DNA from: Escherichia coli
GTDB taxonomy: Bacteria; Pseudomonadota; Gammaproteobacteria; Enterobacterales; Enterobacteriaceae
Length of the DNA stretch: 64,000 bases
Reading direction: 5' to 3' (one strand)
Assembly: GCF_003991155.1 (NCBI RefSeq)
Contig: NZ_CP031293.1
Shown piece by piece: positions 26,060 through 38,491 of the stretch; within the stretch, counting starts at the first letter, position 1; every line of letters begins with the position of its first letter. Both the position numbers and the translations under genes were made by a program. The notes under the pieces were generated by a model. The model was not told the origin of the DNA and did no database searches. It saw only the letters and a list, made by a program, of their open reading frames with translations.

Positions 26060-27484
26060 ATGCAACATAAGTTACTGATTAACGGAGAACTGGTTAGCGG
26101 CGAAGGGGAAAAACAGCCTGTCTATAATCCGGCAACGGGGGACGTTTTACTGGAGATTGCCGAGGCATCCGCAGAGCAGGTCGATGCTGCTGTGCGCGCG
26201 GCAGATGCAGCATTTGCCGAATGGGGGCAAACCACGCCGAAAGTGCGTGCGGAATGTCTGCTGAAACTGGCTGATGTTATCGAAGAAAATGGTCAGGTTT
26301 TTGCCGAACTGGAGTCCCGTAATTGTGGCAAACCACTGCATAGTGCGTTCAATGATGAAATCCCGGCGATTGTCGATGTCTTTCGCTTTTTCGCGGGTGC
26401 GGCGCGCTGTCTGAATGGTCTGGCGGCAGGTGAATATCTTGAAGGTCATACTTCGATGATCCGTCGCGATCCGTTGGGGGTCGTGGCTTCTATCGCACCG
26501 TGGAATTATCCGCTGATGATGGCCGCGTGGAAACTGGCTCCGGCGCTGGCGGCAGGGAACTGCGTAGTGCTTAAACCATCAGAAATTACCCCGCTGACCG
26601 CGTTGAAGTTGGCAGAGCTGGCGAAAGATATCTTCCCGGCAGGCGTGATTAACGTACTGTTTGGCAGAGGCAAAACGGTGGGCGATCCGCTGACCGGACA
26701 TCCTAAAGTGCGGATGGTGTCGCTGACGGGCTCTATCGCCACCGGCGAGCACATCATCAGCCATACCGCGCCGTCGATTAAGCGTACTCATATGGAACTT
26801 GGTGGCAAAGCGCCAGTGATTGTTTTTGATGATGCGGATATTGAAGCAGTGGTCGAAGGTGTACGTACTTTTGGCTATTACAATGCCGGACAGGATTGTA
26901 CAGCGGCTTGTCGGATCTACGCGCAAAAAGGCATTTACGATACGCTGGTGGAAAAACTCGGTGCTGCGGTGGCAACGTTAAAATCGGGTGCACCGGCTGA
27001 CGAGTCTACGGAGCTTGGACCTTTAAGCTCGCTGGCGCATCTCGAACGCGTCAGCAAGGCGGTAGAAGAGGCGAAAGCGACAGGGCACATCAAAGTGATC
27101 ACCGGTGGTGAAAAGCGCAAGGGTAATGGCTATTACTATGCGCCGACGCTACTGGCTGGCGCATTACAGGATGATGCCATCGTGCAAAAAGAGGTATTTG
27201 GTCCGGTAGTGAGTGTTACGCTCTTCGACAACGAAGAACAGGTGGTGAACTGGGCGAATGACAGTCAGTACGGACTTGCATCCTCGGTATGGACGAAAGA
27301 TGTGGGCAGGGCGCATCGCGTCAGCGCGCGGCTGCAATATGGTTGTACCTGGGTCAATACCCATTTCATGCTGGTAAGTGAAATGCCGCACGGTGGGCAG
27401 AAACTTTCTGGTTACGGCAAGGATATGTCACTTTATGGGCTGGAGGATTACACCGTCGTCCGCCACGTCATGGTTAAACATTAA
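26060..27484 (+). CDS. patD: Gamma-aminobutyraldehyde dehydrogenase (aldehyde dehydrogenase family)
   Basis: 474 aa; ALDH motifs including catalytic Cys in GQDCTAAC and ELGGKAP. Confidence 0.9.
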
Positions 27485-27525
27485 GGATAATATTGCAGAT
27501 CGTAAGAGTATGAGATGATCTTGCG

Positions 27526-27560
27526 TACTGTCAGAGCACTGATTTCTCTGACAGTACGTG
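27526..27560. terminator. Bidirectional hairpin terminator between patD and yncL
   Basis: Stem tactgtcagag (27526-27536) pairs with ctctgacagta (27550-27560) around a 13-nt loop. Confidence 0.6.
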
Positions 27561-27580
27561 CTGCGTGCAAAATCACTACA

Positions 27581-27676
27581 TCAAATAAACCAGCCAAATC
27601 TCATAGAGATAAGAGTAAACAAACCAACAGCAGCAAAGACATTTATCAGTACTACAGTTCTACTGGAAACATTCAT
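27581..27676 (-). CDS. yncL: Small membrane protein YncL (31 aa)
   Basis: Minus-strand ATG at 27676: MNVSSRTVVLINVFAAVGLFTLISMRFGWFI, stop at 27581; single predicted TM helix; below the ORF-track cutoff. Confidence 0.7.
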   Translation of the reverse strand: MNVSSRTVVLINVFAAVGLFTLISMRFGWFI

Positions 27677-27870
27677 TTTTGCCACCTTTTATCATTGCCC
27701 CTATGTGTATAGTACGGGTTAAGAAAATCCGCAATAATACTCATTCTGAAGATGGATAAGGACAAGTTGCTGTTTGATGATTTTTTCTCAAACTGGTGAA
27801 AAAACTTGATGCACGTCAAAAAATGACGCATATTTGCGCGCGTTTTATTCATCTGGCTGGACGCCCGTAC

Positions 27871-28044
27871 ATGTCTCTCTATCAACACATGCTTGTTTTT
27901 TATGCGGTTATGGCAGCAATCGCATTTCTTATCACCTGGTTTCTTTCTCACGATAAGAAACGCATCCGTTTCTTAAGCGCCTTTCTGGTGGGGGCAACAT
28001 GGCCGATGAGTTTCCCGGTGGCGCTGTTATTTTCACTGTTTTAA
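27871..28044 (+). CDS. ortT: Orphan toxin OrtT (GhoT-like small membrane toxin, 57 aa)
   Basis: Start at MSLYQHMLVFYAVMAAIAFLITWFLSHDKK...; two TM helices; no adjacent antitoxin ORF. Confidence 0.75.
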   Translation: MSLYQHMLVFYAVMAAIAFLITWFLSHDKKRIRFLSAFLVGATWPMSFPVALLFSLF

Positions 28045-28129
28045 ATCTTACTCACTGGCTTGACGGCACCACGCAGACTTATATCATTTGGATGAATCGA
28101 TAAATTTCACAAGTGGCTAAGGAGAAAGT

Positions 28130-38397: not shown

Positions 38398-38491
38398 ATC
38401 GCGGCGGGTTTTCCATGAGTGATGCGTTTTTCTTCGTTCAGCCCTTTTTTAACCAAAAAAGGGCAGGATACCTGCCCGGTATGCAGTAAAT

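Follow-up and report, generated by a model that had tools for sequence, protein, structure and literature searches.

The 31-codon open reading frame on the minus strand at positions 27581..27676 of the 64,000-nucleotide stretch of Escherichia coli DNA analysed here (the window) is yncL, read as a genuine gene for a 31-amino-acid, single-helix inner-membrane protein whose mRNA ends at a stable hairpin. The probability of this reading, including the model of the hairpin presented below, is estimated at about 0.85. The gene is already known, annotated and experimentally studied, and its detection is a correct re-discovery. The gene and its two neighbours are arranged as follows.

26060..27484, plus strand: patD (gamma-aminobutyraldehyde dehydrogenase), convergent with yncL and carrying the hairpin in its 3' flank
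27581..27676, minus strand: yncL coding sequence, 31 codons plus TGA, encoding the protein MNVSSRTVVLINVFAAVGLFTLISMRFGWFI
27871..28044, plus strand: ortT (orphan toxin OrtT, GhoT/OrtT family), divergent from yncL, 194 nt from its ATG

Read from the sequence, yncL starts with ATG at 27676 and stops with TGA at 27583..27581. An automatic ORF call starts three codons earlier, at GTG 27685, but this GTG lies partly within the Shine-Dalgarno sequence and falls out of frame in the Klebsiella clade, so that the ATG is taken as the start. The identity with K-12 b4598 is virtually certain. The NCBIfam equivalog profile NF000537 matches with 72.5 bits (cutoff 35; E = 1.8e-20) over model positions 1-30 of 30, and a RefSeq yncL CDS (WP_001303494.1) with an identical protein lies at the same coordinates, between patD and ortT, in a genome that is 100% identical over the region. 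Precomputed annotations label yncL orthologues as Pfam PF28073:YncL; a scan of the window protein with an older Pfam release lacking the YncL model gave no match. The yncL region is matched in 5415 of 5426 complete E. coli genomes, and the gene carries RefSeq annotation in essentially all complete E. coli genomes. A preliminary description of this DNA, made from the letters alone, had therefore given the reading frame, its product, its name and its place between patD and ortT correctly; it had also called the ORF hidden, which does not hold for a gene annotated by RefSeq/PGAP and represented by YncL families in NCBIfam and Pfam.

It is hardly in doubt that yncL encodes a translated, functional protein. 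Orthologues were collected by an exhaustive search of representatives and with a degenerate DNA pattern on genome contigs. As the pattern fixes ATG, LIN and RFGW, these residues are in part invariant by construction; loci found without the pattern agree with the pattern-retrieved set. In all 39 loci, which represent about eight enterobacterial genera (Escherichia, Citrobacter, Salmonella, Klebsiella, Raoultella, Pluralibacter, Intestinirhabdus and Enterobacter), a frame of 30-31 codons is intact; no other frame is open throughout the 40 distinct sequences. Relative to the window sequence, dN/dS lies between 0.05 and 0.29 in frame and above 1 in out-of-frame controls. Summed pN/pS is 0.21 in frame and 0.32 over the 13 codons unconstrained by the search pattern, whereas the two shifted frames give 1.67 and 3.77. 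Two plus-strand ORFs of 65 and 54 amino acids that overlap yncL were rejected as real genes; their frames are broken by stop codons in Klebsiella, Raoultella and Pluralibacter, and that of yncL is open in every case.

The same architecture is found in 22 of 22 distinct orthologue proteins and in independently found representatives: one hydrophobic helix with Arg/Lys6 and Arg26 at its flanks, the motifs LIN and RFGW, and a length of 30-31 amino acids. Strictly conserved are the intramembrane Asn12, Ser24 and RFGW. Residue 13 varies among V, F, L and I between strains and species, with V13 in the window and F13 in K-12. Native, untagged YncL has been observed by top-down proteomics, and tagged YncL was detected and found to be stress-induced by Hemm in 2008 and 2010, as cited in the paper on membrane depolarisation. 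A translational lacZ fusion of Salmonella yncL is expressed and sigma-S-dependent; 3xFLAG-tagged Salmonella YncL was not detected. The picture of a small, hydrophobic, single-helix, stress-induced protein drawn in the preliminary description is thus borne out by sequence and published induction, and of the checks suggested there, conservation across Enterobacteriaceae and a tagged fusion (carried out by others, as cited) both speak for coding.

When produced from a plasmid in early exponential phase, YncL partially depolarises the membrane and subsequently condenses the nucleoid. The abstract of the depolarisation paper also lists phage-shock induction and reduced protein synthesis; the labelling assay measured YohP. 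YncL is cleaved in vivo in a manner dependent on the intramembrane protease RseP, but purified RseP did not cleave it in vitro. Membrane depolarisation as the native role of YncL is unproven, the phenotype being derived from plasmid expression. The protein may act by self-association or by perturbation of lipids, using the conserved Asn12 within the membrane and RFGW as a C-terminal interface motif.

Many small membrane proteins of E. coli regulate larger complexes (cf. MgtS, AcrZ, CydX, MgrB), which was counted in favour of YncL being a specific regulator or subunit of such a complex rather than a general depolarising peptide, a role of the kind that had been suggested for it from sequence. 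The strictly conserved Asn12, Ser24 and RFGW resemble interaction determinants, and the origin of the depolarisation data in plasmid expression leaves room for this view. It is nevertheless considered unlikely and the earlier suggestion unsupported, as the published effect is a partial depolarisation and neither a binding partner nor a partner complex of YncL is reported in the literature examined. Moreover, the unrelated protein YohP depolarises the membrane too, which points to a generic membrane effect, and OrtT, the product of the sole conserved neighbour, is another small membrane-damaging protein and no complex subunit.

Upstream of yncL the following elements, all on the minus strand, were located.

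27682..27686, minus strand: Shine-Dalgarno sequence GGTGG, 5 nt upstream of the ATG, read from the sequence
27706..27734, minus strand: predicted sigma-S-type promoter, based on the conserved block, a sigma-S SELEX peak and the dependence seen in Salmonella
27711..27706, minus strand: -10 hexamer TATACA, with C at -13 (27712)
27734..27729, minus strand: -35-like hexamer TTGCGG, 17-nt spacer to the -10 hexamer
near 27702-27699, minus strand: probable transcription start, placed from the predicted promoter

GGTGG or a similar G-rich block is kept in all aligned yncL orthologues, and the ACTATA core of the block CGTACTATAc is invariant in all aligned upstream sequences of all genera. Genomic SELEX with sigma-S gave a peak between yncL and ydcX/ortT. 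Expression of yncL is described, in part through citing papers, as sigma-S-dependent and increased in stationary phase, in minimal medium and upon heat shock. The Salmonella orthologue STnc1110, an RNA of 195 nt, yielded 13 reads in an rpoS deletion and 204 in the wild type. In E. coli the average Term-seq reads at the yncL 3' end were 75,265 in LB at OD 0.4, 536,300 in LB at OD 2.0 (7-fold up) and 433,399 in M63 at OD 0.4 (5.8-fold up) (PMC7815308), a rise that matches the results of Hemm 2010 as these are cited elsewhere. The conserved sigma-S-type promoter, with TATACA and C at -13, would produce a monocistronic yncL mRNA of about 180 nt that would accumulate in stationary phase and minimal medium.

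The 3' side of the gene is defined by four features; K-12 coordinates were related to the window with an offset of +1489518.

27524..27536 / 27546..27558, unstranded: perfect 13-bp stem CGTACTGTCAGAG / CTCTGACAGTACG with a 9-nt loop at 27537..27545
27521, minus strand: mature 3' end of the yncL mRNA (K-12 1517039), from Term-seq (PMC7815308 supplementary file 1)
27521..27580, minus strand: yncL 3' UTR, the 60 nt between the stop codon and the mapped mature 3' end
27235..27520, minus strand: C-rich read-through region antisense to the patD 3' end, ending at the Rho region

The hairpin at 27524..27558 follows the stop codon of yncL by 22 nt and that of patD by 39 nt; its folding energy is -20.5 kcal/mol as yncL-sense RNA and -19.7 kcal/mol as patD-sense RNA. 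The preliminary description had reported a perfect hairpin with an 11-bp stem; hairpin and perfection are real, while the stem comprises 13 bp (7 of them G-C pairs), the 11 bp being its inner part, and starts 2 nt before the start given there, 27526. No other perfect hairpin in the 64-kb window is as long, and stems of at least 12 bp occurred in 0 of 40 dinucleotide-preserving shuffles. In the yncL sense, folding gives a z-score of -4.4, and none of 200 shuffles folds as well. Its sequence is unique within the window, and a repeat or REP element was accordingly rejected.

The hairpin is recovered independently by RNAalifold, and compensatory changes occur in 9 of the 15 aligned pairs among Escherichia, Citrobacter and Salmonella. 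Cells of the alignment are paired at 84.8%, compared with 36-53% when the partner is slid; on four of five covariation measures none of 500 shuffles attains the value observed, and on the remaining one, further pair types, 111 of 500 do. Other genera have different hairpins at the same position after yncL. As the sequences vary and the position is kept, the conserved requirement appears to be a stable 3' stem-loop downstream of yncL, whatever its sequence.

According to Adams et al. 2021 (PMC7815308), the yncL mRNA ends 3 nt past the stem (...GUACG-CAA-3'), and this is among the more abundant minus-strand 3' ends of its neighbourhood. A Rho termination region was placed in the same study at K-12 1516753 (window 27235), 286 nt downstream of the 3' end, this position being the most significant one within an 800-nt neighbourhood in an experiment not designed for the hairpin site. 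By DirectRNA-seq, coverage upstream and downstream of it was 220/9 without and 106/72 with bicyclomycin (BCM), a change of the downstream/upstream ratio from 0.04 to 0.68 (Rho score 16.6, p = 5e-21; PMC7815308 supplementary file 2). The ratio of C to G is 1.08-2.17 in every 50-nt interval downstream of the hairpin. RNA polymerase would thus transcribe through the hairpin into C-rich RNA antisense to patD, Rho would terminate the read-through yncL transcript within about 300 nt, and 3'-to-5' exonucleases would trim it back to the 13-bp stem, which would define and protect the mature 3' end. Trimming and protection at yncL are proposed by analogy, the trimming of Rho-terminated transcripts to stem-loops being an established model according to the references bib20 and bib91 as given in PMC7815308. 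On this evidence the hairpin is probably in the main a 3'-end-defining, stabilising structure on a Rho-terminated transcript.

A symmetric hairpin between convergent genes, folding about equally well on both strands, could also serve as a bidirectional intrinsic (Rho-independent) terminator for both patD and yncL, and it had been described as bidirectional from the sequence. A textbook terminator of this type, with A-run, stem and T-run, occupies the equivalent position in Klebsiella, Raoultella and related Enterobacter, and the downstream coverage of just 4% on the yncL strand without bicyclomycin would fit as well (PMC7815308). For E. coli, however, this is quite unlikely. The G+C-rich stem-loop of an intrinsic terminator is present but its U-rich tract is not: the tails are CAAGAUCAUC in the yncL sense and UGCUGCGUGC in the patD sense, neither strand has a U-tract next to the hairpin, and a consensus terminator scan did not call it. 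The attributes of a processed Rho end, in contrast, are found, namely a 3' end at the stem base and a Rho region (both from the literature) and more C than G (computed). Coverage past the hairpin reaches 68% of that upstream when Rho is inhibited (PMC7815308), a rise that speaks against Rho-independent termination, and the hairpin alone would thus not stop the polymerase. A 3' end is mapped on the yncL strand only; on the plus strand Term-seq shows none at the hairpin or in patD in LB at OD 0.4, LB at OD 2.0 and M63, although patD may be poorly expressed under these conditions. Finally, the patD and yncL transcripts are reported as overlapping. The term bidirectional is hence not upheld for E. 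coli, and a covarying structure that probably caps a Rho-terminated mRNA, despite a symmetry suggestive of a bidirectional terminator, calls for caution in reading function from sequence only. The intrinsic bidirectional terminator of Klebsiella and Raoultella and the combination of Rho and protective hairpin in Escherichia and Citrobacter may have replaced one another at the yncL 3' end.

Two further points on the 3' end run counter to a protective cap. The read-through RNA may start at an antisense promoter inside patD instead of at the yncL promoter. In addition, a strong stem can partly terminate transcription even when no U-tract follows, in which case the mapped 3' end could be a trimmed intrinsic product.

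Among the neighbours, ortT is the one unchanging partner of yncL. It is divergent at a distance of 180-199 nt in 37 of 37 evaluable loci, the same arrangement occurs in S. Typhimurium, and the ortT side of the spacer carries a conserved TTGATG-N17-CATATT promoter. The junctions with patD and ydcY have been broken several times; yncL and patD are 93 nt to 2.3 kb apart, with other genes intervening, or patD is missing from the available locus sequence. This invariable pairing with an orphan toxin gene links two poorly understood membrane-depolarising peptides. A tentative and still doubtful proposal is that yncL and ortT form a conserved two-gene module of small proteins that compromise the membrane potential, arranged back-to-back around a control region of fixed length, in which YncL might modulate, potentiate or buffer OrtT. 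Such an effect could be exerted at entry into stationary phase or in the stringent response, for example by hetero-oligomerisation through Asn12.

An obligate coupling of the two genes is refuted from the ortT side, as Kosakonia and Buttiauxella possess ortT without yncL; no YncL-like ORF was found near ortT in these two genera (profile E > 1, compared with about 1e-20 for positive controls). A toxin-antitoxin pair of YncL with OrtT was also rejected, since co-occurrence is not obligatory, YncL is itself depolarising and the neutralising part is hypothetical. The accessible sections of the OrtT study state that intergenic RNAs were tested, list an ortT-ydcY construct under methods and make no mention of a test of the YncL protein.

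The hairpin and the convergent overlap with patD were also weighed as mainly an excludon or RNase III element, in which double-stranded patD-yncL RNA would let the expression of each gene destabilise the other. The pair is one of 165 convergent excludons with RNA-seq overlap in at least 50% of the samples, Rho-sensitive antisense transcription into patD exists (PMC7815308), and in arrays of RNase E or RNase III mutants, as far as the available part of that report goes, the yncL mRNA level is altered (direction not stated) with confirmation by northern blot. This is improbable as an explanation of the hairpin, which covaries as an intramolecular stem and is kept even though the adjacency to patD is not conserved; for patD-yncL, mutual exclusion itself is hypothetical.

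STnc1110 of Salmonella was at first listed as a non-coding sRNA. A mainly regulatory RNA, including a dual-function RNA, with an incidental or secondary ORF would suit the abundance of this discrete transcript (about 180-195 nt), its strong 3' stem-loop, a fairly conserved 3' UTR block just 5' of the hairpin and the pairing of yncL with RprA in RIL-seq and TRIC-seq (in RIL-seq also with KilS). This is very improbable given the strong purifying selection specific to the yncL reading frame and the detection and activity of the YncL protein; a role of yncL as an sRNA target accounts at least equally well for the interactome data. The best local RprA-yncL duplex involves UUGCACGCAGCA, immediately 5' of the hairpin, and has 12 bp, 3 of them G-U pairs; it is equalled by 54 of 300 shuffles. 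A search of Rfam at E <= 1 over 27300..28100 returned no family, STnc1110/yncL being no curated RNA family.

Compared with known systems, the closest is yncL of K-12, the same gene in the same place between patD and ortT, with 30 of 31 residues identical and 2 differences in 410 nt. The Salmonella STnc1110 locus (STM14_1932) likewise encodes a 31-amino-acid orthologue, with ortT divergent and patD convergent, on an RNA of 195 nt that is comparable to the roughly 180 nt estimated here for E. coli. Its hairpin differs, TTGGCGGGGAGG / CCTCTCCGCCGA, and is closer to an intrinsic terminator because a U-run follows about 10 nt later. The 27-amino-acid YohP resembles YncL in its single hydrophobic helix and its dependence on sigma-S or stationary phase; overproduction of either protein depolarises the membrane and condenses the nucleoid, and the two were studied side by side. 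The two have unrelated sequences and loci, oxygen limitation raises YohP but heat shock YncL, and most mechanistic work (SRP targeting, magainin interference) concerns YohP only.

With Rho-processed 3' stem-loops the yncL mRNA shares a mature 3' end at the base of a stable hairpin that lacks a U-tract, and a bicyclomycin-sensitive region downstream in C-rich, G-poor RNA; trimming is a proposal in the case of yncL, whose hairpin is set apart by being unusually long and perfect and by lying also in the 3' flank of a convergent gene. With bidirectional intrinsic terminators it shares the symmetric stem between convergent genes. The versions in E. coli, other Escherichia and Citrobacter are without A-run and T-run flanks, whereas the site in Klebsiella and Raoultella is canonical, TAAAAAAGCAGCC...GGCTGCTTTTTTA, and these related genera solve the same 3'-end problem by a canonical bidirectional terminator at the same position.

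The gene 3' of which the hairpin lies is yncL, a known gene correctly re-identified from sequence alone as a 31-codon minus-strand ORF (RefSeq, NF000537). It is located with its neighbours as follows:

27676 (ATG) to 27583..27581 (TGA), minus strand, yncL ORF of 31 codons, protein MNVSSRTVVLINVFAAVGLFTLISMRFGWFI
27581..27676, minus strand, yncL CDS (WP_001303494.1), exact mapping of the annotation from one identical genome
26060..27484, plus strand, patD (gamma-aminobutyraldehyde dehydrogenase), mapped from the annotation of an identical genome
27871..28044, plus strand, ortT (ydcX, orphan toxin), mapped likewise

Several RefSeq E. coli chromosomes match the 501 bases around the ORF at 100% identity, and a match is present in 5415 of 5426 complete E. 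coli genomes; annotated beneath it are patD, ortT and yncL, the last as 'stress response membrane protein YncL'. In K-12 MG1655 the gene is b4598 (1517099..1517194; K-12 coordinate = window coordinate + 1489518), and 2 of 410 positions differ, one of them giving V13 in the window and F13 in K-12. Codon 13 (27638..27640) lies in the hydrophobic helix and is polymorphic, encoding L in other Escherichia and I in many Citrobacter. YncL scores 72.5 bits against the NCBIfam equivalog NF000537 (cutoff 35), and orthologues are labelled PF28073:YncL in precomputed annotations. Given the RefSeq annotation and the family matches, current annotation does cover the ORF, contrary to the idea that it is hidden, and nothing new in kind is added. 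An 82-aa read-through version of YncL (P0002), which has lost the stop codon (window 27581..27583), is present in the protein database, and in a conjugation GWAS Prokka calls a different, longer ORF embedding yncL; automated annotation of the locus is thus unstable.

The YncL family is narrow, since phmmer, run exhaustively against 1.84 billion representatives, returned only 9 proteins at E <= 0.001. A degenerate DNA pattern, applied to one genome per species, delivered 39 loci from Escherichia, Citrobacter, Salmonella, Klebsiella, Raoultella, Pluralibacter, Intestinirhabdus and Enterobacter. Conservation of the ORF, which the preliminary description had proposed as a check, was borne out: all 39 loci carry an intact 30-31-codon ORF, with dN/dS values of 0.05-0.29 against the window (Nei-Gojobori), and of six frames only that of yncL is open in all 40 distinct sequences.

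Summed pN/pS
yncL frame: 0.21
shifted frame +1: 1.67
shifted frame +2: 3.77
middle 13 yncL codons, free of search-pattern constraint: 0.32

The pattern fixes ATG, LIN and RFGW, whose invariance in the 39-locus set is partly by construction; it is matched by loci reached independently (phmmer representatives; OrtT). Plus-strand ORFs of 65 and 54 aa antisense to yncL were rejected, their frames being interrupted in Klebsiella, Raoultella and Pluralibacter sequences. Two assemblies are probably contaminated or mis-binned: 'Chryseobacterium sp. 18061' (L037, CACSKA010000006.1) carries an enterobacterial yncL/ortT locus nearly identical to that of 'Citrobacter sp. 18056' (L043), and an 'uncultured Raoultella' MAG (L039, CAAEVH010000070.1) a yncL of Citrobacter braakii type.

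An alignment of the 130 nt before the yncL ATG contains a CGTACTATAc block, the ACTATA core of which is invariant in all genera, and a conserved GGTGG 5 nt before the ATG. The promoter elements are:

27711..27706, minus strand, -10 hexamer TATACA, read from the upstream alignment
27712, minus strand, C at -13, typical of sigma-S promoters
27734..27729, minus strand, -35-like TTGCGG, spacer to -10 of 17 nt

Judged from these motifs, transcription would start near 27702-27699. Counted from there to the mapped 3' end, the mRNA would be about 180 nt long, similar in size to STnc1110, the Salmonella orthologue (195 nt; 204 reads in the wild type vs 13 in an rpoS deletion; PMC4014581). A SELEX peak of sigma-S holoenzyme lies between yncL and ydcX (PMC5493296). 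In the passages of PMC12542507 that cite Hemm 2008/2010, yncL is up in minimal medium and heat shock and YncL is induced in stationary phase or stress. Production of YncL increases DiBAC4(3) fluorescence, indicating depolarisation; the nucleoid becomes condensed in about 50-60% of cells, and sensitivity to both magainin-2 and pleurocidin goes up (PMC12542507). As a class II substrate of RseP, YncL was cut in three in vivo assays, but the purified protease did not cleave it (PMC10470546), and the untagged protein was detected by top-down proteomics (PMC12529367). The yncL mRNA is listed among the partners of RprA (RIL-seq and TRIC-seq) and of KilS (RIL-seq) (bioRxiv 10.1101/2025.09.11.675593; PMC8175672).

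Two of the 39 loci are truncated upstream of yncL; each of the other 37 has ortT in divergent orientation at a distance of 180-199 nt from the yncL ATG. This spacer (27677..27870 in the window) has a nearly fixed length, whereas the patD and ydcY junctions are repeatedly broken. The yncL-patD distance is 93 nt to 2.3 kb, or patD is absent from the locus sequence examined; several Klebsiella-clade and Raoultella loci have only an aldehyde dehydrogenase paralogue of about 32-34% identity on the other side, and ydcY adjacency is variable. The yncL-ortT arrangement is identical in S. Typhimurium, reached through OrtT. No YncL-like ORF was found within 2 kb of OrtT (84% and 81% identical) in Kosakonia and Buttiauxella (best YncL profile E-values > 1 vs about 1e-20 for positive controls), so that the association is one-way only. 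Kosakonia has two tandem GhoT/OrtT paralogues at the ortT site.

Co-regulation or cooperation of YncL and OrtT as two membrane-active peptides is a doubtful reading of this arrangement. A role of YncL as OrtT antitoxin is unlikely because YncL is itself depolarising; the OrtT study reports flanking intergenic RNAs tested as antitoxins, its methods name an ortT-ydcY construct, and its available passages do not mention a YncL protein test.

A CTTGATG-N17-CATATT block (27806..27834, plus strand) resembles a promoter for ortT and is conserved, even in Kosakonia and Buttiauxella, where yncL is missing. Term-seq gives a weak orphan 3' end on the plus strand at window 27839 (K-12 1517357), 32 nt ahead of the ortT ORF, with a Rho score of 0.52 and an intrinsic-terminator score of 3.18, and a terminator scan flags a terminator-like hairpin at 27843..27826 on the minus strand. 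This 3' end may reflect an attenuator in the toxin-gene leader or an artefact beside the transcription start.

The hairpin begins 22 nt downstream of the yncL stop in the yncL sense:

27524..27536 and 27546..27558, arms CGTACTGTCAGAG / CTCTGACAGTACG, perfect inverted repeat of 13 bp with a 9-nt loop

The 11-bp stem from 27526 that had been described is the inner part of this structure, which is real, conserved and covarying. It is the longest perfect hairpin of the 64-kb window and its sequence occurs there once; stems of 12 bp or more appeared in 0 of 40 dinucleotide-preserving shuffles, and the fold in the yncL sense has z = -4.4. From an alignment of 22 Escherichia, Citrobacter and Salmonella sequences RNAalifold recovers the stem unaided. 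Both sides are changed in 9 pairs of the full 15-pair stem, and 84.8% of cells are paired vs 36-53% with a slid partner. The observed covariation was reached by 0 of 500 shuffles on 4 of 5 measures, and by 111 of 500 for further pair types. By this comparative evidence the hairpin structure is under selection.

Just 5' of the hairpin, the 3' UTR block UUGCACGCAGCA (27559..27570, minus strand) is fairly conserved in Escherichia, Citrobacter and Salmonella; the best local duplex of yncL mRNA with RprA falls on this block (UGCUGUGUGUAG), has 12 bp including 3 G-U pairs and was equalled by 54 of 300 shuffles. Elsewhere in the window, perfect 10-bp hairpins with A-run/T-run arms at 38441..38464 (GCCCTTTTTT-AACC-AAAAAAGGGC) and 63218..63245 (AAAATGGCGC-TTTAAGAA-GCGCCATTTT, then TTTATTGC) look like canonical bidirectional intrinsic terminators.

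Three nucleotides beyond the stem, at window 27521 (K-12 1517039, minus strand), supplementary file 1 of Adams et al. 2021 (PMC7815308) records a Term-seq 3' end. It is labelled 'antisense to patD' there because its 60 nt from the yncL stop exceed the 50-nt limit for 'primary' ends.

Average Term-seq reads at K-12 1517039, minus strand (PMC7815308)
LB OD 0.4: 75,265
LB OD 2.0: 536,300
M63 OD 0.4: 433,399

This condition dependence agrees with the reported stationary-phase and minimal-medium induction of yncL. A Rho termination region follows 286 nt downstream at K-12 1516753 on the minus strand (window 27235), with upstream/downstream reads of 220/9 without and 106/72 with bicyclomycin (Rho score 16.6, p = 5e-21; PMC7815308, supplementary file 2); with Rho blocked, polymerase thus reads through the hairpin. 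In the RNA downstream of the hairpin C exceeds G in every 50-nt window (C/G 1.08-2.17), as expected for Rho loading, and Rho-terminated transcripts are trimmed by 3'-to-5' exonucleases, as the authors note (PMC7815308). We consider it likely, with a probability of roughly 65%, that, once Rho has terminated transcription, the hairpin sets the mature 3' end of yncL and shields it. Read-through transcripts are assumed to originate at the yncL promoter and would be trimmed back to the hairpin.

The bidirectional character given to the hairpin in the preliminary description holds for folding, the energies being about equal on the two strands (-20.5 kcal/mol in the yncL sense vs -19.7 kcal/mol in the patD sense), but bidirectional use is unproven for E. 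coli. A U-rich tail is absent both ways (CAAGAUCAUC in the yncL sense, UGCUGCGUGC in the patD sense), a consensus terminator scan made no call at the hairpin, and no plus-strand 3' end is listed there or elsewhere in patD for LB 0.4, LB 2.0 or M63 (PMC7815308). ExcludonFinder reports that the convergent patD and yncL transcripts overlap in at least 50% of RNA-seq samples, which is compatible with transcription through the hairpin from both sides. Rather than a bidirectional terminator, the hairpin is more aptly called a cap at the 3' end of a Rho-terminated mRNA.

A strong stem-loop 20-35 nt past the yncL stop occurs in nearly every genus, with clade-specific sequence.

Stems 3' of yncL by clade
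Escherichia: ..ACTGTCAGAG / CTCTGACAGT.., 12-16 bp, no flanking runs
Citrobacter: TGGCAGAGAG / CTCTCTGCCA, no flanking runs
Salmonella: TTGGCGGGGAGG / CCTCTCCGCCGA, U-run about 10 nt later
Klebsiella, Raoultella, some Enterobacter: TAAAAAAGCAGCC / GGCTGCTTTTTTA, A-run and T-run on both sides

The hairpin of Klebsiella, Raoultella and some Enterobacter is a canonical bidirectional intrinsic terminator, whereas those of Escherichia and Citrobacter are without such runs.
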